In this document: in pieces, positions 1-24,475 of the stretch
Layout of the letters: the number at the start of each line of letters is the position of its first letter
Position numbering within the stretch: the first letter of the stretch is position 1
Assembly: GCA_015233135.1 (NCBI GenBank)
Contig: JADFYH010000002.1
Span: 43,102-107,101 of the forward strand
Reading direction: 5' to 3'
Source: Deltaproteobacteria bacterium
GTDB lineage: Bacteria > UBA10199 > JADFYH01
Length of the DNA stretch: 64,000 bases
Program-made: the position numbers and the translations under genes
The notes under the pieces: model-generated
Told to the model about the DNA's origin: nothing
Seen by the model: the letters and a program-made list of their open reading frames with translations, nothing else
Database searches by the model: none

Positions 1-2493
1 GATCCGCGCGCAGGGCCTCCAGGTTCGCACGCTCCGCTGCAACTCGTGTTTCAGTGGGATAACAAGCCAAGGTTCTCAAATGCACTTCCACAGCGTCATT
101 GCTGGAAGGGGCCCTATGATTTACAATGTGCCTTTGGTGTGAGGTCCTCTCCAGGGAAGGCCAGCCTTGAGGATTCAGGCCCATTCGAAGCCAGAGGGTT
201 CGTACCCAATTGGCGGCAGAATGCCCGCCTGTGCTGCTTAAGGCCAAAGAAGGGAATACAGTGCTTTCCGTAATCACTTGAGCGGGATGGTGAAGACCGA
301 AATCATCCGGCTTTGGCATACGCGACCAGGCACCCAGAGGGATTGAGACTTCATGCAAAGGCATGCGACCCGTACGGGCCATTTGTCTTCTGGCAATAAT
401 AAAAGACCTTCCCCCCAGCGGTAAACTGATTACAGAAGAGTGGGGAGGATAAGGGAGCAATCCCAAAAAGCCCAGAGGTTCTGCATCAACCGACATGGTC
501 AATTCATCAAAAACATTTGCAGGATAACCTTCTGCTGCCATCTGCACCACTTGCGTCACCGCGCCATCGTACTCATGGGGTCTGCTTCCTACCGGCACCA
601 TGTAGGGCTCTAAGACTCGCGCAATAGGCTTTGGCAGAAGATTCATGAGTCCGTCTTTGCCCAAAATGGAACCCACCTTCCCACGCATCATGTGAACGAT
701 GTAAATCGCGAGAGAAAGAAAATCCCACCAGCTGCTGTGCTTCATGACATGGATGCTTCCTTCACGAGATAAAATATGCTCCACTTCACAAGGCCCCCGG
801 TAACTCACTCCCGTCGCCTCAAAGATCCTGGGTAATTTTGCCTGAGCCAGTCTGTAAAAAGTTCGATGGTTGGCCGCATTGGCCTCTGCGTTACTCATGC
901 GTGGAATAAGAGGAAGAAAGACCCTTAACAAAGGCCCTAAAGCCCTTGCGGTTTCCCAATAAGCTTTTCCCCTCTCTGCAGGACTTTTGCGCATGCCTTG
1001 TAGCTTGCTTAACTTATCTACATAAGGAGCAGAGAGAAGGCTGACCGCACCCAGAGGCGTCCCCTTGGGTAAAGATCTCTTCAGATCCCGACGAATCTCT
1101 TCTAAGGCCTTGAGAGAGGCCTCCAACAGACGATTATAATGGACACCATCGGCCTTGCCTTGGCCATAAGCAACTCCCCTGAAACGAACCAAAAGCGCCT
1201 CATAACGCGCAATCTTTGCCTCTATTATTTTTTGTTCTGCTTCAGGAATTAAACCGACATAACCCTCAATTTGCAAAAGTTGCAGTTGAAAATCGTCTGC
1301 AAAACTTTGTTGTTTGAAGGCATCGTGATCTGCATGAAAGGCATCATTCGCCTCCTGTGCCGCAGCAAAAGCTGCCTTGGTTTTTTCCAACAAGCCTCTT
1401 TTATCAGCGGCATAATCCGCCAGGGCAGCTGCTGCCTCCGGCAACTGAGCGGTGTCTGCGAGCCCAGAAAAAGAATCCCAAAAATCAAAACCAAGGCTTG
1501 CAATAATACTCTCCAAACGTTTTTCATACTCACCCTGGGCCGCAATATTCGTTTGATTTTTTCGGCGGGCCTTCTCTATCTCTTTGGCATAAACTTCCAA
1601 GGCAAGGATGTTTCGATGAAGTTCAGTACGAACCTCGTTTTCGTTTTTTCCTCTTTGACTTCTCACGGCAAAAGAATCGGTATTCTCTTTTAAAGAATTT
1701 AGACGCTCCGCCACCTGCTTTGCGGGCATGCCCAGCAAGGCCCTGCGCAAAAGATTCAACTCAATTTTCGCAATTTGCAAACGTCGGGCTAAAAGGGGAT
1801 TTTCCAAGAAGTTCTTCATGGCCTTTTGAAAAAGAGCCAACTCCGCTTTATAATCTACTCCATTAGGAGGGGTCGAACCATTGGGAGATTCAAGCTTAAC
1901 AAGACATCTTTCAAAGGCATCCAAGGGGTTTTCTTTTGCCGATTTTTCCTTATCTTTCGCCTTGGGGGCTTGATTTTTTAGAGCCTCTAACTGGGTATAA
2001 AAATGTTCCACCGCAGCCCTGAGCTGCTGGGTGGCGGGCTCATCCCTCAAACCGGGTTCCGATAAAAGCAGAAGATAATCCTGCTCACTTAAATCGTGTG
2101 GATTTTCAGCCATCGCCTGGCGTTGTTCTTCAGGAAAGAAATCCAGTCGTCGCAAAGCTTCGTCAATGGCTGCGCCATCCCCTAAAGCCTTCAATCCTCT
2201 TAAAACAGGGGAGGCCACCGCCCACTCACTAAAATCTCTTCCCAGTTCATTAGAACTTGTGTCCAAAAGATTATTTAACCTCTGCGCCTTGCCGTTCAGC
2301 AGCGCATAATCTACTGCAGGCATCTGGGTAAGCACGGCATTCAGTTTTTCGCTTTTCCCTTGTTGTTCTATGCGATGAACCATGTCCATAAAATGGGTCA
2401 TGGCGGCTTCGCGTATCGCTAGATCTGGGATTCTTGCCAGGACCTCTAAACGCCCCCTCAAAAAGGCCAGACTTTGAGCAGGAATTTTTGCAG
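1..2493 (-). CDS. Large hypothetical alpha-helical protein, 5'-partial in window (start ATG at 2491-2493; C-terminus beyond position 1). Not in the ORF track because there is no in-window stop.
   Basis: Manual translation of the minus strand from the ATG ATG at 2488-2493 (MMSAAKIPAQSLAFLRGRLEVLARIPDLAIREAAM...) runs open to position 1 (about 830 codons). It starts 16 bp downstream of the stop of the giant ORF on the same strand. Codon usage is coding-like. Confidence 0.55.
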
Positions 2494-2508
2494 CACTCAT
2501 CATTAAAT

Positions 2509-5500
2509 CTAATTGTCGAACAGTGGTGGGGGCTGGAACTGCAGGACTTTGTGCCGGTTCATACGGGGAATAACCGCAGGGATTTCATCGCCTGCATTCA
2601 CCCCCCTACCCGCACTTTGGAAAATTCCTGTTAACAATTTCTCTGAAGGATGAGCAGCTTTAAATCTTACACCCATTCTAGAAAGGACACCCTTGCCCCC
2701 CCTCTGAACTAAAAACACCGCAACACCCACAAGTGCCAGTGGCAGACCCGCTTCCTGCACCCCATCGGCTCCATGTAAAAAATGAGCCCCCGCTGCGGCC
2801 AAACTCGGAAAAGTTTCTGCGGCATAATGGAGTAATCTTTCTGAGGCCAGGCTAGAAGCTACACTCAGGGCAATCAGAAGAGCTTTGCCTTTGCTACCCG
2901 TAAGACTACGAACGACGGGCATCCCATCTCCACCCCTCTCCACTAATTCAGTAGGTTCACAGTCCTCAAGCTGTGTGCTATTCCTACTCCGCTCGGCTGC
3001 TGCCATCATCGTTACTCTTTCATCGGCTTCAACATACTCGCCATTGTGTGGATTAAATATCGTCCTTTTGCCTCGAAGAGCTTCTGGAGGAGGTTCAGCC
3101 ATCACATAATTTTTTTTAGGGTCACGTTCAAATTCAAACGAGGGGTCCAAGGGAGGAAGTTCAGGTAAAGCCTCAACTGTTGGAACCGCCAAGGGCAATT
3201 GCATTTCAAATGCCTCAGCTCTACGTCTTGCTGATGATAGTGGATTCAAGCTTATTCTATCGCTTGTAGCGACAGCCGGGGCGGGCATATCGGAAATTCT
3301 TTGGGGAACGCCAGCTCCTTGCTTACTTGAAAAACTAGGTCCAACATCAAAAGTGATATCTGCGGGTCCTACTTTCACCGAAAATTGGAAATGCCGTTTA
3401 AACTCGACACTTCCATCTGGATTTTGCACGCGGACCAGTTCAGCAGGATTAGCTCCTGCCAAAGTTTTGCCAGGTTCTATGACATTAAAATGATAGACTT
3501 TACCTTCAAGCCCTTGGACAAAAATAGTGCCCGACTCGCGCCAAATTTCAATTGCTGGCCTATAGCCGGATTTAGATTCGTAGGTGAGTTTTTGTCTTTC
3601 AATATCCAAATAAATTTTTCGATGAACCCCCTCACCCAAATGTTCAAAAGGATTTCCCAACGCTTGAGTAGTAGGCAACTCACCCAAGGCGGGGAAATCC
3701 ACGAAAGCGTGACATTCAATCTCTCCTCGTGCAATGCATCTCGCCATTCTCGCGGCATCCTCGTAGATCTTTGCAAGCGCGACTTGACCCGCTTCAAATT
3801 GTCGCATTCTTGCTTGATGAGCACGCAAACGAGGCCCTACAAGGGCTAGCAATCCTAACGCTAAAGCAGCAGGTAAACCATAGGTTAACAACTTCTCACC
3901 AAACGATGCAGAATGCAGCGCCACAAACTGCAAAGGATGAGCTTCGCCATCCCCTGCACGCAGCAAGGCAGAAGCCCCCAAAGCCAAAATGGCAGGCAAG
4001 GCCTTTAAGACTCCTCCCCGTTCTGAAGTGGCTGCTTGCGCTGCCTTTGCCGCCTCTTCTCTAATTCGATGACGAATCAAATGTTCGGCAAGTCCATCAA
4101 GCAGATCGGCATGAGGATAGGGATCTTTTTCACCCTCCACCGCAAATCGATAACCAGCGCCACTTGCATTGAGTTTCGCATAAACTTCTGCGCGCAATTG
4201 ACTGCAGGCAACCTCGAGTTCTGTTCCTTCTAGTTTTTCTAATTCGTGAAAAGTTTCAGGATTTTCAACTTTAACGGCAAGTTCCCTAAACAACGCAGTT
4301 AGGGCCTGTTCAGGTAAAGTTAAAGAGCGACTCAGTAGCCTCAAACAATGGTAGACCGATTGATAATGATTCCACCCCTCGACGATGGGGGGACTTGCTT
4401 CGATTTGATTAATCTCCGCCTTTGCAGCTGCAAACAAGCCTGGAAGCTCCTTTGGAGAAGCTTCGCGTAGGATAAAAACGCTAGAAATTCTCTCTGCACT
4501 CAAGGGCACAGCGGGGTCATAAGTTTCATCCACTCCCAGCCTCAAAGCCTCACGCGGGGCAAACAATTCAGTGATGCCATTGGGATTTTTTAAATTTCCA
4601 TCCGGATGGCGTGGCTCGGTACCTCGCACGTATACCTCGTTTCCAGGCACCAAATCATGCGCCAAAGCAAAGTGTTCGGTTTCGAATACCAGGGTATTGT
4701 GAGAGCCCCAGCGGTATTCATGAATGAGTTCACCCACATTCACCTTTTGCCCCACTTTAGGAAATACACGAGAGCTAGACACCAGGGCCGCGGAGGTGCA
4801 AACCATCGCGACACGGCCATGCCTGGGAGTTTTAATAGTGATCACTACTCGATGATTTTTACTTTGAAATTGAGTGCCTTCTCTGCCATCCAGATTCTCC
4901 ACCGCATTTTCCAAACGCAAGGCAGGATCCACCGTCTGTAAAACACCGGGGATCAGCTCCACACTTTCGATTTCTCCGGAAACAGGGGTTAACGTTTGAT
5001 GATAATCTTTAGGAGACAGATAAATTGCCATCGCGGTGAGCGACCTGCCTGCAAATTTGGCGGCCGTACTCTCCCCCAACCCTTCACGCAATTTTAAAAA
5101 GGCATCTCCATTTGGTTTTGCTTCTGTCACCGGCGCCTTACCGGCAAGGCGCACACCGGTATCCAACAAGTTTTCACCGCGCGCCACCCAATCTAAAACT
5201 CCATCGTGATGAGCCTGACCCAGATGAACCGGCAATCCGCCTTCGGGCAGCTTCAGCGCCCGCGTGAAGAAATCGTTAAAGGTACGAATGCCTTTCCAGT
5301 TAAAACGTTCGTCGTGCTCGATCTTAAATTTTTTCACCAAGATTGCACGCAAACTATGCAAAGCCTTCTCACCCCACATTTGAGACAATAAACCAGGAAA
5401 AGCATCTCGAACCTCGTCATAAATTCTACTTATTGGCACGGTAGAACAAAGCTGCTCCAAGGCGGCCGTGAGGGCAGGCGCATCCAATTTTTCGTTATAA

Positions 5501-8500
5501 AAATGATTGGCAGCCAGAAAGAGGCGGGATTTGGGATCTTTGACATCCCCCAAACGAACAAACTCTCTCGGCCAGGCATCCTGGGCATCGTATTGTACCG
5601 CTTCATAAAATTGCCCGGTGTGTTCGTCTCCAAGCATATGCTCTTCAGTTGCCCGACTGAGGGAATCTTGCTGCCAGGTGGAATCATCTACTTTTAATCG
5701 ACTCTCTCCATTTACAGTATGCCTATATCCGTCTACGCTTTGGAGTTCCGGATGAGTAGGCATGTAGTCTTGAGGGCCCTTCACTCCGGGATGGTTCCAT
5801 TCGCTCAACAAGGCCGTGTTCTCCAAACGACGCTCTGTCCACAGATGCCGATAAACTCCAACCGCCAGACCTGCCCCCAAGGTGAGGAGATGAGGCACTT
5901 GAGAAACAAGAGACTCGCCTAACACCAAAGTTTTGGTGGCAATAGAAGACACGCCTAAAAGCAAAGCGGCATAACCAAACTTGCGGTAAGAACCTTTTGT
6001 GAAAGGATGAATGAAGCCACTGAGTAAAGAAGGGACTAACCCTATAATTCCTCCCAAACCCGCTGAGGTAGAGAGCATGGTCAATCCCGTATGAATTCCC
6101 GCTTCAATTTTATTCCACTTGGATTGGCTCTCTCTTTGTTCAGGCGTCCAATCGGCATTTCCTTTTCTGCGATCCAGGCGACGACGATTCACCAGATGTG
6201 CGATCCCCCCCACCAAAGCCAGAGTCACCAAGTGCCCTGGAGTGCTGGCCAGCAAAAAATGCCCCGCGTTTTGTAAAAAGTGGGTCAAGGCAGAAGTGGT
6301 CTCCGCTACAACGGGATGCAACTCTTGCGCCTGGGCCTCAGCGGGTTGAATCAAATGGGTAAATCCAAAAACTCCCACCACCGAGGCAACAGAAACCAAG
6401 GATTGTTTTAAAAATTGACCGGCTGACGCGCCCCTCTCCCTGACCCTCTCCCTCAAGGGGAGAGGGAAATTAGATTTTCCTTCCCCTTGAGGGGAAGGTG
6501 CCTGTAAGGCGGATGAGGTAAGGGCTTCTGAATTGGGATTCACGGCATCAGAATTGGAAATCGGATTGGCATCCAATTGCACACTCCCCTCCTCTGCCCC
6601 TGAGGTAGCTTCTCCCCGAGGAGAAGGGAAGACCGTCTCCACAAAATGCACGGCATCCCCATCGAAGGCCACACGCACTTCATCTCTTTGATGCCGCGCA
6701 GAAAGATCCCGAGCCTGCGTTGCACTTAATCTTTCTCTCAAGGCCATGCGCAGCAAATCGGCTTTGGAAGGCACTCTGACGCTTTCGCGATGAGCGACAC
6801 CTAGACGGGCAGGATGAGAAGCTTGCGCGTGTAAAACATCGAGTGCATTTAAAAGTTCCACAAAACCTTCCAAACGACGAATTTGGGTGGCACGTAATAC
6901 AAAGCTTGCAGACCCACTCACCAAAGATTTTGCAAAACGATTAAAAATCTCCCGTGCTTCCGTGCCAGAAAAATTTTGAAGATAGGCATGCATTTGCGCA
7001 AAATATTGCGCAGGAATTCCACCATTCATGCTGCGTGATAAAAATCGGCTCCGTTCTTCTTCACTCAAATGAAAATTATGACTTTGCTCAATCAAATTTT
7101 CCAGCGAATGCCCACGGGCCTGATATTCCAGCGCTTCAGCGATAATACGTGTGCGTTCATCCAGAGAAAAAGTAGTCAGAGGAAGATTCCCCATTTCTCG
7201 CGAATACACTTCATCAATAAGGGCCACCCGCTCGCGTAAAATTTGACCGACTTCTTCAGGGCTTAAGGCCGCATGAATATCCAGCTGCAAATTCTGACGA
7301 TAGGCCGGCACATTTCCCTGTTCTATCCCATGCAGCACCGCCAAAATGCGTCCACCGTCCGCAGAAAGAGGGTCTAATCTTAATCGCTCAAAAAGATTTC
7401 CATATCGAGGCAGAGTCTCTTTCATGTGGTGAATGGCTTCCCAGCGGTGTTTTAAAGGTCCCAAGACGGGAAGATGCCCAGTGATGCGACCGGCAAGGTC
7501 CATCTGCCCCGCTTCAATTGCTTTTCCGGCGAGCCAGGTTCCCCAGGAGGCGGTTTCTTCGTGTTCTCGCAAACCTACGGCTTCTTGCGCTTTGTCGGCG
7601 GTTAAAAATCCAAGCAGAGTAGAACCCACAAAGTTGGCACTGCCCAAACCCGCTTCGGCGGAATGCACCAATCCCCGCTGAGCCAGGGCAGAGAAGGCAG
7701 AGGAGTCGATCAAACGCACGGCACCTGATCTTAACGGTTTGATAATCCGTGAACCAAACAGCTCTCCATGCCCATGACAGGCCAAAAACATCACCAGGTT
7801 CGACAGATATTTTTTTGAAAGATGATAAGCCCCCAAATTCTCATGACGCCAATTTTGAAAGGCGAGTCGATGATGCGCCGGATCGTGCCTGCTTTGACGA
7901 TAGGCCTGGGCCGCACCGAGGGCGGTTTCCAGACCCACGAACACTGCGGCTTCGCCGGCCTTCATCGCCAGGGTACAAAGCAAACGCCCCCCTAAGCTGG
8001 CACCGATTCGGGCAGAGAAAAGCCCACCAAACATGAAAGGCAAAAGGAAAGAGGCATTCGACCAAACACTGGCCTCCCCATGAATGGGCAGCATCTCAGA
8101 GGCACTGGAAAGCACCCCATTCATTTGGGCACGGTGGCGCAAAAGGTCTTGAAGACCTGAAACCTGATCGGCTGGGGCCCCATTTTCTTGCAACAAAGAA
8201 CAAAGCGACAAAGAAACCTGCGCGGCGTTAAAACGAGAATGAGAGAGCTCTAAGGTGAAGGCCTCCAGATTGGCATTCACCTGCACGGCAGAGAGACCAG
8301 CGACCGAATTGGCATTGATGAAATTCAAGACGAGTTGTCCTATCGAAGTTGCAGAGGCCCTATCTTCGTTGCCTAGCAGGTGGTTGACGGAGGCTTCGAT
8401 GTTAAAGGCAGGCGCCTCGGCGGAATGCTCAAAAAATTCTCTGAGGTGAGTAAATCGAGTTTCCGTCGCAGAGCCCAGTAAAGTTTGCATCGCCTGAGCT

Positions 8501-10428
8501 ACCGTCAAACGATGTTCTGCCTCGGCTGAAGTGAGACGACTAATTTCCTGGATGAATAAATCTTTTTCCGCATTCAAGGCTTCCGCTGTATCTGCCCCTT
8601 CGGAAGCAAGGATCCCGACTTGATGATTGAGTGCAACATCGAGCACACGCAGCAGAGTGGCCGATCTCAGGCTGGCACGCTGGCTATTGACCTGGGTTTG
8701 CAGTTCGTGAGCCAGTTGATTTTCGGGATGCTGCAGCACCATGGCCTCTAGTCGGGACGAAATTTGATCCAGCCGATCTGCCGTGAGCTCATGGGTTTCC
8801 ATCCGAAGCACAGGAAGCACTTGAGCGAGCTCTGTGAGACCGCGTTGCTCTTCGGCACCAAGCCTTGCCCTGCCACGATTTCCGGCCGCGGCACAAAGTG
8901 CTCCGAGACTATCCAAGGCCTGTAAGGCTTCGCTATTCATTCCAACGCGGGTATAAATTTGGGCCAGTTCACGATAAAGCCGGGCATTCGCCAAATTGGG
9001 AGTTTTGTTCGCCAGCTGTTCCGAGACCCTTGCACCCAATTCCCGAACGGCGTCTTGAAGTCCAAAAGAAGCGAGGATCTGCAGGGCCTGTGAGGCATTC
9101 TGAAAACTTTGAGTGGACCAGCAACGACTGCTGTTCGCATTGGGAGCCAGTTGATGAGCGATCAGGGTTTGTCTGAAGAAAGTGTCGGCTGAGATGCTAT
9201 CGAGCTGACTGAGACGTTCTTGCCTTTGAGCCTCCGTCCCCGAAGAAAGATAAGCCTCAAAATCGTTCACCGCTTGCTCCGACAAACGGCCGTAGGCCTG
9301 GCGCGAAAGCCCGGAAAATTCTCTACGAAAAAGATCTCGACCCACAGACGTTTGGGCATAATTTCGAATGAGAGTTCTTAAAATTTCTTGTCCCTGTGCA
9401 GAGAGTGAAGCCCGTGAAAGCGATAAGGTTCGAAGCGCTTCCACACTGGCACTGTGACCAGAATGTTGGATGGTGTGTAAGGCAATGGCCGCAACCCTTT
9501 GGCGTTGTTGGGTCAGCCGTTCCGTCACTTGCGCGCGACGTTCGGCCAGTTGAGTAGGGTTAAGGTGATTCCGTGCCCAGTTTCCAATCGACAAAACCGT
9601 GTGAGCCGTGGCGGTGGCCATCTCATGGGCTAAATCACTGATACTTTTTTCATGATTTGGAGTTTGAGTTTCGCTGAGGTTGCGAGCCGTCAAAAAATCG
9701 ATGTCGGCCAAATAATTATTTTCCAGGCTCTCCCGCAGGGTTTCATTGTGAGCAACAAATTGATCGACCTGTAAAAAAGCGAGAGCAGTTTCGGCGGAAA
9801 CCGAAAAAAGAGAAGCCGCAGAATAAAGCTCCGCGCGCAAATGCAGCAGCTGGCCTATCACCTGCGCTTGCAGTTCTTGGGGCGCAGTCGCCGCATGAGC
9901 CAGAAATTGGGTGGCTGCCATCAGCTCCTGAGCCCGTTCGGTCACATCGTGAGAGGGATGCGACAGAACTTGAGTGATCCGCTCAAAACCACTTTGCAAA
10001 ATGCCTTGGGCATAAGAGGTGCCTTCAAGCGCGGCAGCCAATTGGCGTCTAAGCTGCAGCTGTTGTGGCACAGCCAGGCTTCGACTCTCTTCCGAAAAAC
10101 CTTGAAGGATTTCCGTAATTTTTGTTTCATCTCCCAATTCAACCAAACTGGGGAGAAGCATCAAAAGGGCTTCCTGCCTATCTCTGCCCTGAAGATTTTG
10201 GTGAATGAAATGGAGGCGGTCCCGAGTAAACTCTCTCAAGTTTTCCTGTTCGCCCGAGGAAGCGAATCTTCTGGCCACAATAGCGGCCGGTACTGTTGTT
10301 GCCGGCAACAAGGGAACCACACTTAAATTTCGTGGGGGGGAACCAGGCTCTCCTCCAGAAGAAGTCGCATTGACAGAACTTTCCGGGAGTGAAAAAGGAG
10401 AAACAGCAGGAAGAATTCGAATAGCCAT
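2509..10428 (-). CDS. Giant (2639 aa) multi-domain membrane protein with an embedded phosphatidylserine decarboxylase-like domain (encoded at about 4650-5320).
   Basis: Single uninterrupted 7.9-kb ORF. Central hydrophobic multi-TM stretch. PSD hallmark motifs occur in canonical order and spacing: FNDFFTR, YLSPKDYHQ, and the G-S of YRWGSHNTLVFE at the position of the LGST self-cleavage site. Intervening similarity to E. coli Psd (IPGVLQTVD vs VPGDLFSVN). Confidence 0.8.
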   Translation of the reverse strand: MAIRILPAVSPFSLPESSVNATSSGGEPGSPPRNLSVVPLLPATTVPAAIVARRFASSGEQENLREFTRDRLHFIHQNLQGRDRQEALLMLLPSLVELGDETKITEILQGFSEESRSLAVPQQLQLRRQLAAALEGTSYAQGILQSGFERITQVLSHPSHDVTERAQELMAATQFLAHAATAPQELQAQVIGQLLHLRAELYSAASLFSVSAETALAFLQVDQFVAHNETLRESLENNYLADIDFLTARNLSETQTPNHEKSISDLAHEMATATAHTVLSIGNWARNHLNPTQLAERRAQVTERLTQQRQRVAAIALHTIQHSGHSASVEALRTLSLSRASLSAQGQEILRTLIRNYAQTSVGRDLFRREFSGLSRQAYGRLSEQAVNDFEAYLSSGTEAQRQERLSQLDSISADTFFRQTLIAHQLAPNANSSRCWSTQSFQNASQALQILASFGLQDAVRELGARVSEQLANKTPNLANARLYRELAQIYTRVGMNSEALQALDSLGALCAAAGNRGRARLGAEEQRGLTELAQVLPVLRMETHELTADRLDQISSRLEAMVLQHPENQLAHELQTQVNSQRASLRSATLLRVLDVALNHQVGILASEGADTAEALNAEKDLFIQEISRLTSAEAEHRLTVAQAMQTLLGSATETRFTHLREFFEHSAEAPAFNIEASVNHLLGNEDRASATSIGQLVLNFINANSVAGLSAVQVNANLEAFTLELSHSRFNAAQVSLSLCSLLQENGAPADQVSGLQDLLRHRAQMNGVLSSASEMLPIHGEASVWSNASFLLPFMFGGLFSARIGASLGGRLLCTLAMKAGEAAVFVGLETALGAAQAYRQSRHDPAHHRLAFQNWRHENLGAYHLSKKYLSNLVMFLACHGHGELFGSRIIKPLRSGAVRLIDSSAFSALAQRGLVHSAEAGLGSANFVGSTLLGFLTADKAQEAVGLREHEETASWGTWLAGKAIEAGQMDLAGRITGHLPVLGPLKHRWEAIHHMKETLPRYGNLFERLRLDPLSADGGRILAVLHGIEQGNVPAYRQNLQLDIHAALSPEEVGQILRERVALIDEVYSREMGNLPLTTFSLDERTRIIAEALEYQARGHSLENLIEQSHNFHLSEEERSRFLSRSMNGGIPAQYFAQMHAYLQNFSGTEAREIFNRFAKSLVSGSASFVLRATQIRRLEGFVELLNALDVLHAQASHPARLGVAHRESVRVPSKADLLRMALRERLSATQARDLSARHQRDEVRVAFDGDAVHFVETVFPSPRGEATSGAEEGSVQLDANPISNSDAVNPNSEALTSSALQAPSPQGEGKSNFPLPLRERVRERGASAGQFLKQSLVSVASVVGVFGFTHLIQPAEAQAQELHPVVAETTSALTHFLQNAGHFLLASTPGHLVTLALVGGIAHLVNRRRLDRRKGNADWTPEQRESQSKWNKIEAGIHTGLTMLSTSAGLGGIIGLVPSLLSGFIHPFTKGSYRKFGYAALLLGVSSIATKTLVLGESLVSQVPHLLTLGAGLAVGVYRHLWTERRLENTALLSEWNHPGVKGPQDYMPTHPELQSVDGYRHTVNGESRLKVDDSTWQQDSLSRATEEHMLGDEHTGQFYEAVQYDAQDAWPREFVRLGDVKDPKSRLFLAANHFYNEKLDAPALTAALEQLCSTVPISRIYDEVRDAFPGLLSQMWGEKALHSLRAILVKKFKIEHDERFNWKGIRTFNDFFTRALKLPEGGLPVHLGQAHHDGVLDWVARGENLLDTGVRLAGKAPVTEAKPNGDAFLKLREGLGESTAAKFAGRSLTAMAIYLSPKDYHQTLTPVSGEIESVELIPGVLQTVDPALRLENAVENLDGREGTQFQSKNHRVVITIKTPRHGRVAMVCTSAALVSSSRVFPKVGQKVNVGELIHEYRWGSHNTLVFETEHFALAHDLVPGNEVYVRGTEPRHPDGNLKNPNGITELFAPREALRLGVDETYDPAVPLSAERISSVFILREASPKELPGLFAAAKAEINQIEASPPIVEGWNHYQSVYHCLRLLSRSLTLPEQALTALFRELAVKVENPETFHELEKLEGTELEVACSQLRAEVYAKLNASGAGYRFAVEGEKDPYPHADLLDGLAEHLIRHRIREEAAKAAQAATSERGGVLKALPAILALGASALLRAGDGEAHPLQFVALHSASFGEKLLTYGLPAALALGLLALVGPRLRAHQARMRQFEAGQVALAKIYEDAARMARCIARGEIECHAFVDFPALGELPTTQALGNPFEHLGEGVHRKIYLDIERQKLTYESKSGYRPAIEIWRESGTIFVQGLEGKVYHFNVIEPGKTLAGANPAELVRVQNPDGSVEFKRHFQFSVKVGPADITFDVGPSFSSKQGAGVPQRISDMPAPAVATSDRISLNPLSSARRRAEAFEMQLPLAVPTVEALPELPPLDPSFEFERDPKKNYVMAEPPPEALRGKRTIFNPHNGEYVEADERVTMMAAAERSRNSTQLEDCEPTELVERGGDGMPVVRSLTGSKGKALLIALSVASSLASERLLHYAAETFPSLAAAGAHFLHGADGVQEAGLPLALVGVAVFLVQRGGKGVLSRMGVRFKAAHPSEKLLTGIFQSAGRGVNAGDEIPAVIPRMNRHKVLQFQPPPLFDN
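6431..6500. repeat. REP-like GC-rich palindromic element (ccctctccc...gggagaggg family) inserted in frame within the giant ORF.
   Basis: cccctctccctgaccctctccctcaaggggagaggg followed by ttccttccccttgaggggaagg. Same family as copies at 15511, 16597, 33283, 35166 and 41954. Encodes PLPLRERVRERG in the protein. Confidence 0.6.
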
Positions 10429-10570
10429 TTTGGAATCCTCGGTTATTTTTGACTTGTTATTAGTTTTAGGGGGCAGGCCCCTCTACCTCTATTGGGAAGT
10501 GGTCGGCAATTATTAAAAAAAGTTGCTAAAAAAATGCATCCTGTCTCATTTTTTTTATAAAGGTTAAAAA

Positions 10571-12028
10571 ATGCCCAACTCCTTGCAAGAATTTGTTAAT
10601 TTTCTCGAACAAAAAAACGAACTGCTTCGAATTCGGGAAGAAATAGACCCCATTTTGGAAATTAGCGAAATAGCTGACCGCGTCATGAAAAAAGGAGGGC
10701 CTGCCCTGCTTTTTGAAAGGGTAAAAGGATCGGAGTTCCCCCTACTCATCAACACCTATGGCTCGAAGCAGCGAATGGCCTGGGCCTTGGGCGTTGGAGA
10801 CATCGAAGAACTGGCGACAAAGATACGTCAATTAACAAAAACTCAGCCCCCCCAAGGGATATGGGAGAAACTGAAAATCCTTCCAAAAATGATGGACGTC
10901 GCGAGAAGTATGATGCCCAAAGAGGTGGGTTCGGCCCCCTGCCAAGAGGTGGAGATGGAGGAAGTAAACCTTTCCAGGCTCCCGATTTTGAAATGTTGGC
11001 CCAAAGACGGAGGAAAATTCATTACCTTGCCCATGGTCATCACCAAAGACCCCGAGACAGGCCATCGAAACGTCGGGATGTATCGCCTGCAGGTCTTGGA
11101 TAAACAGAGCACGGCCATGCACTGGCAGATTCATAAAATGGGTTCAAGACACTACAACAAGTACAAAGAACTTAAAGAGAAAATTCCTGTGGCCGTGGCC
11201 ATTGGAGGAGACCCCTGCCTCAGCTATGCCGCCACCGCTCCCCTGCCCGATCAAATGGATGAATTCATGTTTGCTGGATTTTTAAAAGGAGAAGGAATCA
11301 AGACAGTCCGATGTCTGACGAACGATCTGCAGGTTCCCGCCTCGGCCGATTTTATTTTAGAAGGCTATATCGACCCACTGGAAGAACTGGTCGACGAAGG
11401 ACCTTTTGGAGATCACACGGGTTACTACACCCCGGTAGAAAAATTCCCGAAATTCCATATCACAAAAATCACGCATCGAAAAAATCCCATCTATTTGACC
11501 ACCCTTGTAGGCATCCCGCCCATGGAAGATGAATTTTTAGGCAAGGCGACGGAAAGACTCTTTCTCCCTCTGGTCCAGCTTACCTTCCCCGAAGTGGTGG
11601 ACATGAATCTTCCCACCGAGGCCTGCTTTCACAATCTCTGCATCCTGAGCATCAAAAAGCAGTATCCCGGACATGCCTTTAAGATCATGCATTCCCTCTG
11701 GGGTCTGGGCCAGATGATGTTCTGCAAGGCCTTTATTGTGGTGGATCACGACGTGGATGTTCAAGACATCCAAGAAGTGGTTTGGCGGGTCTCCAATAAC
11801 ATCGACGCCAAACGCGACATTACTTTTGTGGATGGACCGGTAGATCATCTCGATCACGCCTCCCCTCAGCAATTCATCGGCAGTAAAATGGGCATTGATG
11901 CCACTCGTAAGTGGAAGGAAGAGGGCTACACTCGTGAATGGCCGGAGGATATTGTAATGGACACAGAGATTAAGAAAAAAATAGATCAAATATGGGAAAG
12001 GTTAAATCTTCATCTTCCTCAACCTTAA
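10571..12028 (+). CDS. ubiD: UbiD-family (4-hydroxybenzoate/prenylated-aromatic) decarboxylase, menaquinone/ubiquinone biosynthesis-type.
   Basis: 485 aa. N-terminus [27 protein letters not shown]...[13 protein letters not shown] is typical of the UbiD family. Correct length. Confidence 0.8.
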
Positions 12029-16853: not shown

Positions 16854-18770
16854 TCAAATATTCTTTTTAATATAATCCGCAATCCGCAGCGAAAAAGCCA
16901 TGATGGTCATTTGAGGATTTACTCCCAGAGAAGTGGGAAAGATGCTGCCATCGCTAATGAACAAATTGTCCATCTCGTGAACTTTTCCAAAAGAATTGAC
17001 GACCGAATCTTCCGCCTCTGTCCCCATGCGGCAAGTGCCCAAGGGATGAAAGGCCAGCACCTCCATATCCTTTTTTGTCACTTCCAATTTTTCAAAAATT
17101 TCCAGGTCCGCTCTGCTTTTCAAGACAGGCATGGGATGGAAGGGCGTGTAAACTTCTTTTGCGCCCGCTTCAAAAAAAAGCCTGCACAAGAGGCGAGTAC
17201 CCTGAATGAATTTTTTCACGTCGCTTTTTATCAGGTTATACAAAACCATCGGATAATCTTTGGGGCCCAAATAAACACTGCCTCGCGTGTCATCGCTAAT
17301 CATGAAACCAAAACAGGCCAGATGATCGAATTGCTCCATCACCGTTTTATGCTCAAGCCCCATCAACAAGATGGAAGGCCCTCCGATGGGAGGAGTGAAA
17401 ATTCCTTCAAACATGATGCCTTGGTCATTGTAGTCTTCACAATAGTAGCTTTGTGGTACTCCTTCCCAACCCCGCACTTCCTCTTCAAATAAAGCGAAGG
17501 CCTTGCCCGCAGGATGCAGCGTTAAATTCTTACCCACCTCGGCCAAATTCAACTTTGATTTTTTGAGCAGTACAGGAGAAAAAATACTGCCGGCAGCAAG
17601 CACAAACACCTTGGCCTTCACTTTGACCATGGCCCCTTTTTCAGCCGTCAGAGGATCTACAAATTGTGCCCGCACTTCCCGCACCTTTCCTTTCTCATGA
17701 ACAATTTCTTCCACTCGACATTGAGCCAACAGGCGAGCCCCTTGTTGCAGGGCCTGAGGAATGAAGTTGAGTTGCACACTTTGCTTGGCATCCGTGGGAC
17801 AACCTAAAGTACAAACACCACTTCCCTCGCAGTTAATCACATTTCGAAGCAGAGGCTTTCCCTGCATGCCCATTTTTTGAAAACCGCGCTGTATGATTCT
17901 GGCGCTATTCCCTAAAAGATGTTCGGGCACGGGGGTCACATGCAGGATAGACTCAATTTTTTCAAAATAAGGCCGCAAACCCTCGGATGAAATATCTTTC
18001 AGGTCATATTGGGAATTCCATTTTTGGATCACTTTATCCGGTAGGCGAAAACAGGTCCCGGAGTTGATGGTCGTGGTGCCCCCCACGCTACGTCCAAAAG
18101 GTAAAAGGACAGGAGGAAGACCCAAGGCCGCAAAGAGACCCGACTCCCTCCACATCTGACTGATGCGCTTTCCAATAGGCTCTTTAAAATCATTCAGATC
18201 ATAACGCCCACCTTCTTCCAGGATCACCACTTTCAAACCCTGGGCACTCAGTTCGGCAGCTAGAGGAGCTGCCCCTGCGCCTGAGCCAATCACGCACACC
18301 TCGCAATCGAGGGATAAATCTTTATCCGAATGAAGAAGCACATTCTCGGAATGAAGTGCGGGAGAAGCGGGAATCCGCGGCTTTTTAAGATAAAAACCCA
18401 GGGCCTCTTCTACCTTTTTTTGGCTGTAATATTGAGAGATAATTTTGGCTTCCAGCAGTCTGAAAAGGATCTTTTTGGGATAAAAATGAGAATAATAAAA
18501 AGATTGGACAACTTTTTCTTGCTGAAGAGGCTGAAGTTTTAAAAAAGGTTTTAAAAATCGAAGCAGCCCCCCCCACTCCAGCCATTTTAATCCAAGCCTG
18601 AAGGACTGTTGCATAGTGGCTTGGCAACACTGAAGAGATCTCTCCAAAGAATCGACGAGTTGTAAATCTTCACAGCAAAAGGGAAGTTTCTCTGTCTTGG
18701 GAATCAGCAGATCCACCAAAGCCTGAAGTATTTTTCTCTCCTTTGACTTGAATTGAAAGAGTTTACTCAT
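16854..18770 (-). CDS. GMC-family FAD-dependent oxidoreductase (choline dehydrogenase-like) with an N-terminal extension of about 130 aa.
   Basis: FAD-binding fingerprint CVIGSGAGAAPLAAELSAQGLKVVILEEGG. C-terminal GMC substrate-binding region. 638 aa. Confidence 0.75.
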   Translation of the reverse strand: MSKLFQFKSKERKILQALVDLLIPKTEKLPFCCEDLQLVDSLERSLQCCQATMQQSFRLGLKWLEWGGLLRFLKPFLKLQPLQQEKVVQSFYYSHFYPKKILFRLLEAKIISQYYSQKKVEEALGFYLKKPRIPASPALHSENVLLHSDKDLSLDCEVCVIGSGAGAAPLAAELSAQGLKVVILEEGGRYDLNDFKEPIGKRISQMWRESGLFAALGLPPVLLPFGRSVGGTTTINSGTCFRLPDKVIQKWNSQYDLKDISSEGLRPYFEKIESILHVTPVPEHLLGNSARIIQRGFQKMGMQGKPLLRNVINCEGSGVCTLGCPTDAKQSVQLNFIPQALQQGARLLAQCRVEEIVHEKGKVREVRAQFVDPLTAEKGAMVKVKAKVFVLAAGSIFSPVLLKKSKLNLAEVGKNLTLHPAGKAFALFEEEVRGWEGVPQSYYCEDYNDQGIMFEGIFTPPIGGPSILLMGLEHKTVMEQFDHLACFGFMISDDTRGSVYLGPKDYPMVLYNLIKSDVKKFIQGTRLLCRLFFEAGAKEVYTPFHPMPVLKSRADLEIFEKLEVTKKDMEVLAFHPLGTCRMGTEAEDSVVNSFGKVHEMDNLFISDGSIFPTSLGVNPQMTIMAFSLRIADYIKKNI

Positions 18771-19125: not shown

Positions 19126-20403
19126 GTGATGAATATCATCAATTTCAATCAGATCTTGATGGGAAGAGCTTATACAGCCACCTTTCCAAACCTCTGCACA
19201 AATTCAATTTCAAATGAGCTGAGTCCAAATTATGCTCAGATCCTTTCTAGAAACTTTGCCAGAAGCTTTACCAAACGCCTTGAAAATCTTTTACAAAGTG
19301 GACAAGCACAGCCTTCCTCTGCTGCCACACAAAACCAAGTGACTCAAGGAGTTCAAGGTATTCAAGGAGAACAAGGCTTTGTCGCCCAGGTCAACAACGA
19401 GCTGCAGCAGCAAATTTATACCCCAAATGTGGAAGAGCAAAAAAAGTTGAATGACATCAATGCCGACCGGGCCAAAGACGGCAAGCCTCCCATCAATTTT
19501 CAGCAAGTCACCCGTGAAATTGAAAACATCATGAATGATCCCAACCTGGATGAAGGGAAGAAAAAGGATCTCGTTGGAAAAATAAAGGATCGTTTGGGCC
19601 TTGGGAAAGGCGATATGAAGTTTTTATTTACCAAGCGCTTGGCAAAACTTCATGAACAAGCAGCTGATAAATTAAATACCCGTTTAGAAAGTTTGGAAAA
19701 AAATGCAAAAGAGATGGAAAGACTCTACGGCAAGAATAGTCCTCAAGCCTTGCAAGCCAATCAGGCCCTGGAAACCTCCAAAAGTGTTTTAGAACCCCAA
19801 AAACAGCAATGGGAGGCCAAGGCAAACTCTTACAGTAAAATGTTCCCTAGTTTTTGGAGTAAACTGGGAGGGGCATTTAAAAAAGTGGTCTCTGCTGTCA
19901 CCAAAGTGGTCAATGCAGTCGCGCCCATTTTAAAGATGATCCCCGGCATTGGAACGATTGCTTCCCTAGGTTTGGCGGCCATCAACGGGCTCAACAGTAT
20001 CGTCCATGGAGATTGGAAAGGTTTTCTGAAAAATGTGGCCTCAAATCTCGCAAGCGCTGTTCCTGCCTTGGGATCTGCAGTTCAGATGGGCATGAATGCC
20101 TTCAACACCGTAAAATCCTTTGCAAAAGGGAATATCATGGGGGGCCTCGGCGGGCTCATGAATTTCACTGGGGCACTCCCTGAAAAAGTGGGGGACATTC
20201 TCAACAAAGGCTGGTCTGCCTTTGGAAGCATTTACTCGGCGGCCAAAGGAAATTTTATGCCCCTCTTCAATACGGCCCTCAACTTTGCTCCTCAAATTCC
20301 TGGTGTTCAAAAGCTGCAAGAGACTTGGAATAATCTCCAGCAAAAAATACCTGTCCCGCTTAACCAAGGAATACAATGGCTTTCGAGTTGCTTTCCCTTC
20401 TAA
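19126..20403 (+). CDS. Hypothetical secreted/translocator-like protein: Q-rich coiled-coil N-terminal half and a C-terminal Gly/Ala-rich bilobed hydrophobic domain.
   Basis: Good SD (aaaaagggggaagtgATG). No homology recognised. Hydrophobic hairpin VTKVVNAVAPILKMIPGIGTIASLGLAAINGL. Confidence 0.65.
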   Translation: MMNIINFNQILMGRAYTATFPNLCTNSISNELSPNYAQILSRNFARSFTKRLENLLQSGQAQPSSAATQNQVTQGVQGIQGEQGFVAQVNNELQQQIYTPNVEEQKKLNDINADRAKDGKPPINFQQVTREIENIMNDPNLDEGKKKDLVGKIKDRLGLGKGDMKFLFTKRLAKLHEQAADKLNTRLESLEKNAKEMERLYGKNSPQALQANQALETSKSVLEPQKQQWEAKANSYSKMFPSFWSKLGGAFKKVVSAVTKVVNAVAPILKMIPGIGTIASLGLAAINGLNSIVHGDWKGFLKNVASNLASAVPALGSAVQMGMNAFNTVKSFAKGNIMGGLGGLMNFTGALPEKVGDILNKGWSAFGSIYSAAKGNFMPLFNTALNFAPQIPGVQKLQETWNNLQQKIPVPLNQGIQWLSSCFPF

Positions 20404-20445
20404 AAAATTTCACTCGGTGAGTTATAACCGATGTGGAAGGCGCAG

Positions 20446-20490
20446 TGAGAGCCTTGTCCTGATTAGGGATGAGGCTCTCCTGTTTTTGGC
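20446..20490 (+). terminator. Probable rho-independent terminator downstream of the 425-aa gene.
   Basis: Hairpin gagagcc...ggctctc followed by ctgtttttgg. Confidence 0.35.
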
Positions 20491-20681
20491 GTTTCATTTT
20501 CAAACCCCAAAAACACTCAAGCGTCCGAAATTCGAACTGGAAAAAAACGACTTAAAGAACATCAAAATATAACCCACTAAAAAGACAAAGTTTTTTTTCA
20601 AAAAAAACACAGGACGAGTTGGCATCTTCTTGGCATTTACAAGAAAGCGTAAACATCAACAAATTTAAAAAGGAGCCTAAA

Positions 20682-23470: not shown

Positions 23471-24475
23471 ATGGAAACTCAACTCTCTTTTAAAGACCGT
23501 GCCAAGCAAGCCTTCTATTTTTATGCCGGGATAGGGCAAGGAGTTGTAGACACCGCCAAAGGCCTAGCCAAGCTCTCTCTGCTCCCCGCCACACAAGGCT
23601 TGGATGCCTTGGGAAAAGCGGCCGATTTTATTTCTCATCCTCAAGAAAAAGCAGAAGCCGCTTATCAGGAAGCAAAGCAGGGGTACAAGGATCTGCAAAG
23701 GCTTTGGAGTCAGCCCAAAGAAGAGATTTCAAAAGGGACAGAAAAACTGGGCAACGCTGTTCAGCACGAGTGGAACGAATTCACAAAGCCTTTTGAAAGT
23801 AGTGACCCCAATGTGAGGGCCAAGGCTTGGGGCGAGACAACTTTTAACGTTGCGTCCTTATTTTATGGTGCGGGGGAATTGAAAGGTGCAAGCGTTGCCA
23901 CAAAAGAACTTTCTGTCTTTAGCAAGGCAGAAATTGCGGAATCGAAAATTGTTTCTCAATTAGCAGAAACGGGCGCTGAGATCGCCTCACCTTCTTCAGC
24001 TGCAAGCAGCACCTTACAAGCTTCAGTTCAGTTGTATGAAAGAATTCCAGCGGGTTTTAACAACAGCAAAGAATTTGAAGAATTTGGAAATCTTTTTAGA
24101 GAAGGCCTCCAAAAAAGTGCTGACCCTGAAGCAATTGGAGTGTTAAGAGGGAGTTCGGTCACTGGGGTGAAACATAAAAATGGTTTACCCTTTGATACGG
24201 GAAAGAGGAGTGATTTGGATTTGACGGTGGTGAGTCCGAAGTTGCTCAAAAGGGCTGAGGAAATGGGAGTGAAATTGAGGGAGGGGAAAACTAGGACTGG
24301 GCCTTTGGATCCAGATTTTTTTAGACAAAAACAAATTCTAAAAAAATTAAACCTATTTGACAGCATTCAATCATTGCGAAGCTTTTCTAATAGAGATGTA
24401 AGCCTTATGATATACGACAGTGAAGCTTCCGTTGCAGGCAGAGGCGAGTATATAAAATTTGGAGATAAGAAATGA
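23471..24475 (+). CDS. Putative polymorphic-toxin-like protein: N-terminal pre-toxin (PT-TG-like) Gly-rich region plus a C-terminal nucleotidyltransferase-fold motif.
   Basis: N-terminus AGIGQGVVDTAKGLAKLSLLPATQGLDALGKAADF. C-terminus LRGSSVTGVKHKNGLPFDTGKRSDLDLTVV fits the GS...DxD minimal NTase signature. Overlaps the downstream small ORF by 4 nt (ATGA). Confidence 0.45.
   Translation: METQLSFKDRAKQAFYFYAGIGQGVVDTAKGLAKLSLLPATQGLDALGKAADFISHPQEKAEAAYQEAKQGYKDLQRLWSQPKEEISKGTEKLGNAVQHEWNEFTKPFESSDPNVRAKAWGETTFNVASLFYGAGELKGASVATKELSVFSKAEIAESKIVSQLAETGAEIASPSSAASSTLQASVQLYERIPAGFNNSKEFEEFGNLFREGLQKSADPEAIGVLRGSSVTGVKHKNGLPFDTGKRSDLDLTVVSPKLLKRAEEMGVKLREGKTRTGPLDPDFFRQKQILKKLNLFDSIQSLRSFSNRDVSLMIYDSEASVAGRGEYIKFGDKK

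Follow-up and report, generated by a model that had tools for sequence, protein, structure and literature searches.

An embedded phosphatidylserine decarboxylase domain in a giant predicted membrane protein from an uncultured bacterial lineage

The locus and its giant open reading frame

The window, by which we mean the whole 64-kb stretch of DNA analysed, contains an exceptionally long open reading frame (ORF). This is flanked by a second ORF downstream and by a divergent gene on its other side. The relevant features are as follows:

1..2503, minus strand: downstream ORF of at least 834 aa, in another frame than the giant ORF and running off the window edge
503..781, minus strand: candidate LPLAT/PlsC-like segment of the downstream ORF (aa 575-667), from a weak Pfam match and motifs
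2509..10428 (TAG stop included), minus strand: giant ORF of 2639 aa and 288 kDa, a single open frame with an ATG start
10436..10440, minus strand: Shine-Dalgarno sequence GAGGA, 8 nt 5' of the giant-ORF ATG
10571..12028, plus strand: ubiD-family decarboxylase gene, divergently transcribed and also the neighbour of the phosphatidylserine decarboxylase (PSD) gene in the relatives L001, L004 and L085

The Shine-Dalgarno sequence lies within an AT-rich, 142-bp, divergent intergenic region common to the giant ORF and ubiD. The UbiD-adjacent position, beside futalosine genes, recurs in L001, L004, L085, L005 and L006. In relatives, the locus adjoins housekeeping menaquinone genes.

The downstream ORF begins 5 nt past the giant-ORF stop, and there is no terminator-like site at the junction. 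It corresponds to aa 3001-3865 of P0076, a homologue from another assembly (39% identity), in which it is fused to the giant protein. Its LPLAT-like segment matches PF01553 with an E-value of 0.031 and 14.5 bits, below the cut-off of 23. The same ORF has HSSWWD (HX4D; nt 722-739) and, about 75 aa later, FDELT. Both are conserved in P0076 and, reading by eye, we take them to be LPLAT motifs I and III. A PDB profile search with this region gave no match, and an AF2 model, made from a two-sequence alignment, was unusable (pLDDT 32).

The initial annotation described a 2639-aa membrane protein with a PSD domain inside it, and noted that a chimeric sequence would undo this description. The match to PF02666, together with the hydrophobic helices, is far beyond chance. 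Could the ORF nevertheless be an artefact of assembly or annotation, either chimeric or several genes taken as one? The source genome is a metagenome-assembled genome (MAG), and the giant ORF has no exact match in the contig collection searched. However, the ubiD and pheT genes of the window are likewise absent by exact match, so the entire contig is simply missing from that index. A 48-mer from the left end of the window was also absent from JGI metagenome contigs. Conversely, the 7.9-kb frame has no interruption, a good Shine-Dalgarno sequence, and a GC3 value (0.45) like that of its neighbours (0.44). Furthermore, the giant ORF is colinear with aa 74-2017 of P0076, at 57% identity over 1960 aa, and this similarity spans almost the full length. 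Since P0076 was assembled independently, we conclude that the giant ORF is no assembly chimera. An artefact of any kind is extremely improbable.

The phosphatidylserine decarboxylase domain

The features of the PSD domain, in the order of the protein, are listed below:

4579..5361, minus strand: PSD domain, aa about 1690-1950 (Pfam envelope aa 1780-1933)
5260..5280, minus strand: FNDFFTR (aa 1717-1723)
5203..5205, minus strand: D1742 in HHDG, equivalent to D90 (PADG) of E. coli Psd in alignment A1
4996..5022, minus strand: YLSPKDYHQ (aa 1803-1811), of which YLSPKDYH is aa 1803-1810 (4999..5022)
4681..4716, minus strand: YRWGSHNTLVFE, the Gly-Ser motif segment (aa 1905-1916)
4702..4707, minus strand: G1908-S1909, predicted site of self-cleavage and pyruvoyl formation, with H1910 for the Thr of LGST (alignments A1 and A3)

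An hmmscan search with PF02666, as proposed initially, gave a significant match over aa 1780-1933 (E-value 3.7e-19; 69.6 bits, for a gathering score of 22). Several NCBIfam PSD models matched weakly, all far under their equivalog, full-length cut-offs. This is as expected, since the domain is divergent and embedded. A phmmer search retrieves the E. coli Psd structures 7cnw and 6l06. The domain has the PSD three-dimensional fold; its two insertions are predicted poorly by the model (mean pLDDT 65.6). No canonical psd gene occurs within the 64-kb window.

The three hallmarks of PSD occur in canonical order inside the giant ORF, as first reported, and the positions given then are all within about 15 nt of those computed here. 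For comparison with characterised enzymes we used alignment A1 (18 sequences, 7 of them canonical PSDs) and alignment A3 (72 sequences, 71 of them canonical PSDs). G1908 and S1909 fall in the G and S columns of LGST, which are invariant in A1 and nearly invariant in A3. The Gly-Ser is thus exactly at the cleavage position, as claimed. In E. coli Psd, autocleavage has been assigned to D90/D142-H144-S254, while Y137, S166 and V167 bind the phosphate of phosphatidylserine (PS) and H144 recognises the carboxylate (PMC7952604). By alignment, the autocleavage-triad positions are kept in the giant ORF as D1742, D1808 (D142) and H1810 (H144, in an invariant column). Note that D90 seemed lost in the first phmmer alignment (ARG against ADG); in the multiple alignment the register differs by a few residues and HHDG is paired with PADG, so that we reject a missing Asp. 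Similarly, Y1803 is equivalent to Y137 and T1832/V1833 to S166/V167, with Thr for Ser at the first position.

The H147 position deviates. Here, L1813 replaces the second His of DYHRxH, and Leu is also found in P0076 and in two shorter relatives, P0077 and P0078. The E. coli H147A and H147N variants still self-cleave, and H144 is the essential His (PMC7952604). Hence, we regard loss of H147 as a deviation and not a disqualifier. It is the more notable change when compared with GSH for GST, in which His takes the place of T255. GSH is kept in the four closest relatives. Furthermore, active members of the family differ in the residue that follows the Ser: PsiD, for example, cleaves at GGSS (PMC11929908), which shows that LGST need not be matched at its third position. 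The GSH/Leu147 subfamily has a signature of its own: HEYR[WF]GSHNT, YHQ[TA]L and the two insertions.

Flanking regions and relatives of the giant protein

Outside the PSD domain, the giant ORF can be divided into the following parts:

6439..10428, minus strand: N-terminal region (aa 1-1330), helix-type composition
7429..8931, minus strand: most conserved block (aa 500-1000), 67-88% identical to P0076, with the peak at aa 801-900
5854..6417, minus strand: five hydrophobic helices ahead of the PSD domain (aa 1338-1525)
2512..4578, minus strand: C-terminal extension (aa 1951-2639), which would join the alpha chain after cleavage
3820..4017, minus strand: hydrophobic hairpin (aa 2138-2203), two helices and a GDGEAHPLQ-type turn
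3394..3756, minus strand: module of ~120 aa, beta-rich in appearance, GNPFEHLGEGVHRKIYLD...VQGLEGKVYHF, conserved in P0076
2683..2883, minus strand: last hydrophobic pair (aa 2516-2582)

Neither flank had been recognised initially, and neither aa 1-1330 nor aa 1951-2639 gave a match to Pfam or, by sequence, to the PDB. By self-BLAST, neither terminal region contains internal repeats. The N-terminal region is depleted of lysine (1.1% K and 7.9% R, against 7.3% K for the 40 other genes of the window). Within it, the aa 500-1000 block is rich in Gly and Ala, of moderate hydrophobicity, and contains the conserved motifs HDPAHH and ACHGH. Identity to P0076 is up to 88% in this block and lower, at 59-68%, in the PSD domain. 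Hence, the main function may lie outside the PSD domain. The multi-helix segment, said to precede the PSD domain, consists of the five helices at aa 1338-1525 and is homologous to the membrane region of P0077 and P0078. The whole protein has about nine hydrophobic helices, arranged in hairpin pairs; the number is odd or ambiguous. The C-terminal extension is absent from canonical and short-form PSDs. Its conservation with P0076, where the hairpin pattern of aa 2138-2203 is repeated several times, is weak (29% identity over aa 2141-2527). We take the N-terminal region, with its aa 500-1000 block, and the C-terminal modules to be scaffolding or localisation elements.

A homologue search with the whole giant ORF gave no match, and the PSD domain alone returned only canonical PSDs, at ~30% identity. 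With the conserved N-terminal block (A6) as query, no relative was detected in a scan of metagenomes. Close relatives emerged only from an exhaustive search of 1.84 billion representatives, which yielded a single other giant form. The architecture is therefore as unusual as was supposed. That form, P0076 (5394 aa), merges both ORFs of the window in one polypeptide. At its C-terminal end there are a clear acyltransferase domain (PF01553, 37.7 bits) and a CDP-alcohol phosphatidyltransferase domain (PF01066, 51.9 bits). The homologous sequence would lie beyond the window, which covers only the LPLAT-like segment. We found no account of PSD-acyltransferase/CDP-alcohol-transferase fusions, or of giant bacterial PSDs, in an incomplete coverage of the literature; this is absence of evidence only.

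Other relatives are short (700-830 aa), occupy the same UbiD-adjacent locus, and end directly after the PSD domain. At locus L002, an 831-aa PSD relative (P0077) is three genes from a 648-aa CDP-alcohol phosphatidyltransferase. The two proteins have their N-terminal 227 aa in common (96% identical). The best NCBIfam match of this transferase is pssA, which is sub-threshold, as are all NCBIfam matches of such transferases. Across the short relatives, this N-terminal module is joined to PSD domains of two types, a CDP-alcohol transferase, an FGE-sulfatase and unknown domains. The PSD module, comprising the transmembrane helices and PSD domain, has been exchanged between genomes with 87% identical flanks. 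Related genomes carry either a GST-type or a GSH-type module at the same locus. We also looked for the N-terminal module in the giant protein, and rejected it (hhalign probability 0.4%, E-value 0.14; E-value 3.3 with an HMM of 13 modules).

Predicted function and comparison with known systems

Our preferred explanation, to which we assign a probability of roughly 0.55, is that the giant ORF encodes a lineage-specific, membrane-anchored PSD proenzyme that has grown into a 288-kDa scaffold, within a phospholipid-synthesis assembly. The initial proposal, in which a large scaffold tethers a lipid-modifying activity, is kept as the best reading. Briefly, the PSD domain would cleave itself between G1908 and S1909, by a D/D-H-S mechanism (D1742/D1808-H1810-S1909), and S1909 would become a pyruvoyl group. 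Two chains would thus arise from the giant protein, beta (209 kDa, aa 1-1908) and alpha (79 kDa, aa 1909-2639), both membrane-anchored and held together through the PSD fold. The pyruvoyl group is expected to form a Schiff base with PS and to convert it to phosphatidylethanolamine (PE), probably on the cytoplasmic leaflet. The enzyme would act beside the protein encoded by the downstream ORF, which is translationally adjacent. In P0076, the equivalent unit also holds a PlsC-type acyltransferase and a CDP-alcohol phosphatidyltransferase, which is probably a PS synthase. The locus would thus encode a co-localised phospholipid-synthesis assembly. Leu at H147, His at T255, the two poorly predicted insertions, the low mean pLDDT and the weakly supported LPLAT-like segment count against this explanation, as does the higher conservation of aa 500-1000.

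A bolder version of this idea is possible, though doubtful. The giant protein and its downstream partner could form a bacterial 'phospholipid synthasome', a membrane-embedded assembly with acyltransferase and PS-synthase-type activities as well, in which each enzyme hands its glycerolipid intermediate to the next at one defined place in the membrane. Here, the self-cleaving PSD would be a joint, the lysine-poor N-terminal region with aa 500-1000 would serve as a localisation or catalytic module of a new kind, and a related N-terminal module, spread across the lineage, would direct several membrane enzymes to that place.

Might the domain be a PSD-fold pyruvoyl decarboxylase for another substrate, such as a different lipid with serine or an amino acid as head group, or an amino acid in solution, with GSH/Leu147 enzymes having diverged from a GST/His147 paralogue? 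The subfamily signature, the two insertions, and the occurrence of either type at the same locus would fit. However, FNDFFTR and the PS-phosphate-binding residues (the equivalents of Y137 and S166/V167) are kept. Moreover, the domain is membrane-anchored and fused or linked to a CDP-alcohol phosphatidyltransferase, and PS is made by enzymes of this class. That GSH and GST modules interchange at one locus argues for equivalent function, and we consider another substrate unlikely. It is very unlikely that the PSD domain is mainly a self-cleaving joint for a giant precursor, or catalytically dead, with the real activity elsewhere. The higher conservation of aa 500-1000 and the loss of H147 could be read in this way. 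So could the two large chains that cleavage would yield, and a P0076 alpha chain that would bear all downstream enzymes. Against this, residues for decarboxylation and PS binding (H1810, Y1803 and T1832) are retained, not those for cleavage alone. In addition, the short relatives stop right after the PSD domain, like canonical enzymes, so cleavage there would free only a small alpha chain.

The initial annotation also suggested a secreted effector. In this reading, the giant protein, or the part of it that contains the PSD domain, would be secreted or translocated and would convert PS to PE in a foreign membrane, be it of host, prey or competitor. Some toxins and effectors are known to be poor in lysine, and hydrophobic hairpins occur in inclusion-membrane-type proteins; the giant protein is very large, lysine-poor at its N-terminus, and has such hairpins. 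The modular short relatives, with one N-terminal module before different enzyme domains, and the swapping of PSD cassettes between genomes, recall polymorphic effector families. Conversely, we detected no signal peptide, or hydrophobic core resembling one, no known secretion domain in Pfam or NCBIfam, and no secretion-system gene among the annotated genes of the 64-kb window. The protein has about nine hydrophobic helices, and one partner of the shared N-terminal module, like the fusion partner in P0076, is an integral-membrane CDP-alcohol phosphatidyltransferase and therefore no plausible secreted cargo. The locus is conserved beside housekeeping genes, GC3 is native, PADLOC gave no match, and no immunity-like gene is consistently downstream. 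Finally, the purine, menaquinone and cell-wall functions encoded in the genome are what a free-living cell typically has. We consider an effector quite unlikely and do not retain the suggestion. The giant protein is probably a very large scaffold for membrane-lipid synthesis.

Bacterial PSD is usually a small, monotopic enzyme. Here, its catalytic core forms part of a protein some eight times larger, and P0076 extends this to 5394 aa with two further phospholipid-synthesis domains. If self-cleavage occurs as predicted, nature would here offer an example of a giant membrane protein that is split, by a cleavage that forms pyruvoyl, into two chains which are both anchored. The protein would then also be a candidate case of PE synthesis that is physically organised in bacteria, something that has so far been hard to demonstrate. 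In addition, the results draw attention to a deep uncultured lineage in which several membrane enzymes carry a common, lysine-poor N-terminal module and close genomes have swapped PSD modules. The embedded giant PSD appears to be a variation on the known PSD family, and the functions ascribed to it here are predictions from sequence.

The closest characterised enzyme is E. coli Psd (PDB 6L06/7CNW), in which the motifs FNDFFTR, YLSPxDYH and G-S follow one another as they do here. The equivalents of D90, D142, H144, Y137 and V167 are kept in the giant ORF, and S166 is Thr. Both are membrane-associated, and the pyruvoyl proenzyme mechanism is expected for the giant ORF. However, identity is only about 25-33%. 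The giant ORF has 2639 aa instead of about 320, outside the size class of canonical stand-alone bacterial Psd (about 280-350 aa, with a small alpha chain). It has true transmembrane helices, rather than N-terminal amphipathic helices, and a predicted alpha chain of 731 aa with membrane hairpins, rather than about 70 aa. Locally, it has WGSH for LGST, Leu for H147 and two insertions, and has lost the 'TVWxGxV' segment. The PsiD-type decarboxylases, which act on Trp or Arg (PDB 8X4Q and 9JER), share the PSD fold and G-S self-cleavage, with a next residue other than Thr (GGSS). Unlike the giant protein, these are soluble fungal amino-acid enzymes with no membrane anchor and another context at the PS phosphate-binding site.

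Longer PSDs are known in eukaryotes. Thus, yeast Psd2 and plant PSD2/3 (about 600-1100 aa) also have the PSD domain in a much longer protein, with extra domains for localisation or regulation, and eukaryotic-type multidomain PSDs were among our weaker matches (for example P0087, which has an EF-hand-like motif). In these proteins, the extra domains are C2 or EF-hand domains, and the PSD domain is at or near the C-terminus. The extensions of the giant ORF are unrelated and have neither domain. Furthermore, little sequence follows the PSD domain in yeast Psd2 and plant PSD2/3, and these proteins carry no other lipid-synthesis enzyme as a fusion. In psd-pssA operons, two enzyme classes of the PE pathway are linked, as they are by neighbouring genes in L002 and in one polypeptide in P0076. 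The difference is that here the enzymes are physically fused (P0076) or carry the same 227-aa N-terminal module (L002). There is also an extra acyltransferase, with thousands of residues without assignment, and the pssA matches of the transferase are below NCBIfam cut-offs. Lastly, polymorphic toxin and effector families resemble the short relatives, in which a shared N-terminal module precedes varied C-terminal domains and the cassette of transmembrane helices and PSD domain is replaced between close genomes. In contrast, the giant protein has no shared N-terminal module (HMM E-value 3.3), no trafficking domain and no immunity gene, and the cargo of the family includes integral-membrane biosynthetic enzymes.

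Catalytic residues of the PSD domain

The giant ORF (window 2509-10428, reverse strand) is a single open frame of 2639 codons with an ATG start. Upstream is an AT-rich 142-bp region, common to the giant ORF and divergent ubiD. The three PSD motifs listed by the initial annotation are all found, with nucleotide positions off by no more than about 15 nt.

8 nt 5' of the giant ORF ATG, reverse strand, within the AT-rich region: Shine-Dalgarno-like GAGGA
Giant ORF aa 1717-1723: FNDFFTR
Giant ORF aa 1803-1811: YLSPKDYHQ
Giant ORF aa 1905-1916: YRWGSHNTLVFE

As anticipated, Pfam PF02666 matches (E 3.7e-19; 69.6 bits against a gathering score of 22). Several NCBIfam PSD models also match, under their full-length cut-offs, and a phmmer search of PDB sequences retrieved E. 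coli Psd. By profile, motifs and fold, the domain is a PSD family member. It is not the canonical housekeeping PSD equivalog, since size, architecture and score differ. No second PSD-like ORF was found in the 64-kb window.

Residue equivalences were taken from two separate alignments, one with relatives and seven canonical PSDs (A1) and one with 71 canonical PSDs (A3). In both, G1908-S1909 fall in the G-S columns of LGST, as first proposed. H1810 lines up with the invariant His (E. coli H144). Similarly, Y1803 corresponds to Y137, D1808 to D142, T1832/V1833 to S166/V167, and D1742, in HHDG, to D90 in PADG. Note that E. coli Psd autocleavage relies on D90/D142-H144-S254, that H144 is indispensable for decarboxylation, and that Y137 and S166/V167 are the lipid phosphate-binding residues (Cho et al. 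2021, PMC7952604). The catalytic residues are thus present, as equivalents D1742, D1808, H1810 and S1909.

Two positions deviate: H147 is replaced by Leu1813 and T255 by His1910. Neither change affects a residue shown to be essential. E. coli H147A and H147N mutants retain cleavage (Cho et al. 2021, PMC7952604). Furthermore, the PSD-fold enzyme PsiD is active and cleaves at GGSS (PMC11929908), and so the Thr after Ser is dispensable. Because both deviations are kept in all three closest relatives, we regard them as a subfamily mark rather than decay. A domain that is cleavage-only, or dead, is improbable.

Relatives and genomic setting

A word-indexed protein search returned no close relative of the giant protein. 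When aa 1440-2639 were searched exhaustively against 1.84 billion representatives, three emerged: P0076, P0077 and P0078. P0076 (5394 aa), the other giant form, comes from an independent assembly and is colinear; identity is 57% between aa 5-1963 and P0076 aa 74-2017, and falls to 29% over aa 2141-2527. Hence, the ORF is real and not the chimera that the initial annotation had allowed for; an artefact is scarcely credible. Since its GC3 (0.45) equals that of its neighbours (0.44), the gene is native. P0077 (831 aa) and P0078 (803 aa) match aa 1437-1962, from the membrane region through the PSD domain, and end directly after it. In the GTDB set, two MAGs (L005 and L006) encode versions of 705-776 aa, with 46-49% identity. 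A wider clade (P0079-P0084 and P0090; 408-1083 aa) retains GST and, mostly, H147. A metagenome scan with the conserved N-terminal block of the giant form gave no match, which marks this form as rare.

In the window, and in three relatives' loci (L001, L004 and L085), the PSD gene adjoins divergent ubiD.

Window 10571-12028: ubiD-type decarboxylase

At short-form loci, futalosine-pathway genes (amidohydrolase, MqnC, MqnA) directly follow the PSD gene. In the window they (MqnA as a probable one) are at 47048-51337, about 37 kb from the PSD gene and about 35 kb from the ubiD-type gene, implying rearrangement or insertion. Also in the window are apt, nlpD, pcm, surE, pheST, infC, thrS, meaB, sppA, rpsA, rodA, purMN and guaAB, an ordinary chromosomal context. 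Two fusions were also seen: a 638-aa protein joining a gluconate 2-dehydrogenase subunit 3-like domain to a GMC oxidoreductase (16854-18770, reverse strand), and a 724-aa M-S restriction-modification protein with N6 DNA methylase and type I specificity (Methylase_S) domains (61770-63944, reverse strand).

PheT from the window has a 100%-identical counterpart in the NCBI MAG 'Deltaproteobacteria bacterium'. Matches at 78% and then at about 50% come next, the latter including the organism of P0077; among cultured organisms, the best is Desulfuromonas (42%). On these identities, the family belongs to a deep uncultured lineage. Sizeable ORFs (334-612 aa) at 19126-22457, 23471-24475, 54318-55835 and 59604-60812 had no Pfam or NCBIfam match, consistent with a poorly sampled lineage.

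Flanking regions and linked lipid enzymes

The hydrophobic multi-helix segment described ahead of the PSD domain consists of five helices (aa 1338-1525). The domain is followed first by a helical stretch and then by a hairpin at aa 2138-2203. Beyond these come a module (about 120 aa), proline-rich sequence and, last, a hydrophobic pair (aa 2516-2582). The hairpin plus module pattern recurs several times in P0076.

Giant ORF aa 1-1330, window 6439-10428, reverse strand: N-terminal region of helix-type composition
Giant ORF aa 500-1000, window 7429-8931, reverse strand: stretch of highest conservation with P0076 (67-88% identity; maximum in aa 801-900)

The N-terminal region has no repeats, Pfam match or PDB match. 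Lysine makes up 1.1% of its residues, compared with 7.3% for 40 other genes of the window, and arginine is raised (7.9%). P0076 has the same bias and, across the N-terminal extensions (the giant protein, P0076 and P0077-P0083), lysine is 0.4-3.5% against 7.3%, with arginine elevated. Lysine depletion is a family-wide trait that GC3 does not explain. Conservation with P0076 is higher in the aa 500-1000 block than in the PSD domain (59-68%). The block is of moderate hydrophobicity, keeps HDPAHH and ACHGH, and has no family or structure match.

The giant ORF ends with TAG, followed by in-frame TAA TGA TGA.

Window 1-2503, reverse strand: downstream partial ORF, 834 aa or more, with its ATG 5 nt past the giant ORF stop in another frame, exiting the window's left edge
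L002 10001-12496: gene for P0077 (831 aa), 870 bp from the transferase gene and three genes upstream of it
L002 13369-15315: CDP-alcohol phosphatidyltransferase (648 aa), best sub-threshold match pssA

The downstream ORF, coiled-coil-like in its N-terminal half, matches P0076 aa 3001-3865 (39% identity). Since the giant ORF also matches P0076, the two window genes are one polypeptide there. Further C-terminal, P0076 carries Acyltransferase (PF01553; 37.7 bits) and CDP-alcohol phosphatidyltransferase (PF01066; 51.9 bits) domains; the latter has weak NCBIfam matches, including pssA, all below cut-off. The part of the downstream ORF inside the window matches Acyltransferase only below threshold (E 0.031); the LPLAT-like segment there is weak and contains HSSWWD, and neither profile search nor modelling confirmed it. 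HSSWWD (HX4D) and, about 75 residues on, FDELT are both kept in P0076.

In the relative's locus L002, the N-terminal 227 aa of P0077 and the transferase are 96% identical. A PIN toxin-antitoxin pair lies between the two genes. Fusion in P0076, adjacency in L002 and the common N-terminal module together point to a PSD and a PS-synthase-type enzyme that work together. This lysine-poor, Gly/Ala-rich module (about 200-260 aa) also begins each of four tandem genes of a single MAG (L089 1577-10067), which end in PSD, FGE-sulfatase and two unknown domains; further copies are at L088 3228-5048, L004 16311-18137 and in L009. The module resembles a lineage-specific tag for membrane or envelope enzymes.

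A candidate phospholipid-synthesis assembly

Building on the PSD domain and its residues, which are observed, we infer that the giant ORF unit as a whole would be a co-localised phospholipid-synthesis assembly (probability roughly 0.55). Cleavage between G1908 and S1909 would generate the pyruvoyl group and leave two chains, of 209 kDa and 79 kDa. Both would be membrane-anchored and kept together through the PSD fold, and the enzyme would convert PS to PE by decarboxylation. CDP-alcohol phosphatidyltransferases have their active site on the cytoplasmic side. Because such a domain is in the same chain in P0076, the PSD domain is probably cytoplasmic; the helix count does not settle the side.

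Amino-acid decarboxylases with a PSD fold exist, and the domain might act on a different substrate. This is unlikely, since the PS-phosphate contacts, membrane anchoring and transferase linkage favour PS. Somewhat less likely again is the secreted effector suggested by the initial annotation. Its lysine bias and size would fit, as would the modular, cassette-like short relatives. Between L004 8540-10951 and L085 8983-11049, flanks are 81-88% identical (87% taken together) and the first 265 codons of the UbiD-adjacent gene are common. The TM and PSD modules then differ (GSH/Leu147 against GST/His147 type) and are unrelated at the DNA level. That similarity ends at codon 265 and restarts in the next conserved gene points to replacement of a cassette. 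However, the N-terminal module of these relatives also sits on an integral-membrane biosynthetic enzyme, and is not detectable in the window, including the giant protein (HMM E above 0.6). Nor is there any sign of secretion, or a secretion system among the annotated genes of the 64-kb window.

The literature searched describes no bacterial PSD inside a protein longer than 2600 aa, and no PSD fused to acyltransferase and CDP-alcohol transferase domains. Multidomain PSDs (Psd2-type) are known in eukaryotes, and resemble the giant protein in this respect. Bacterial psd-pssA operons are also known and similarly link PSD to PS synthase; here, PSD and a CDP-alcohol phosphatidyltransferase are fused in P0076 and nearby in L002.
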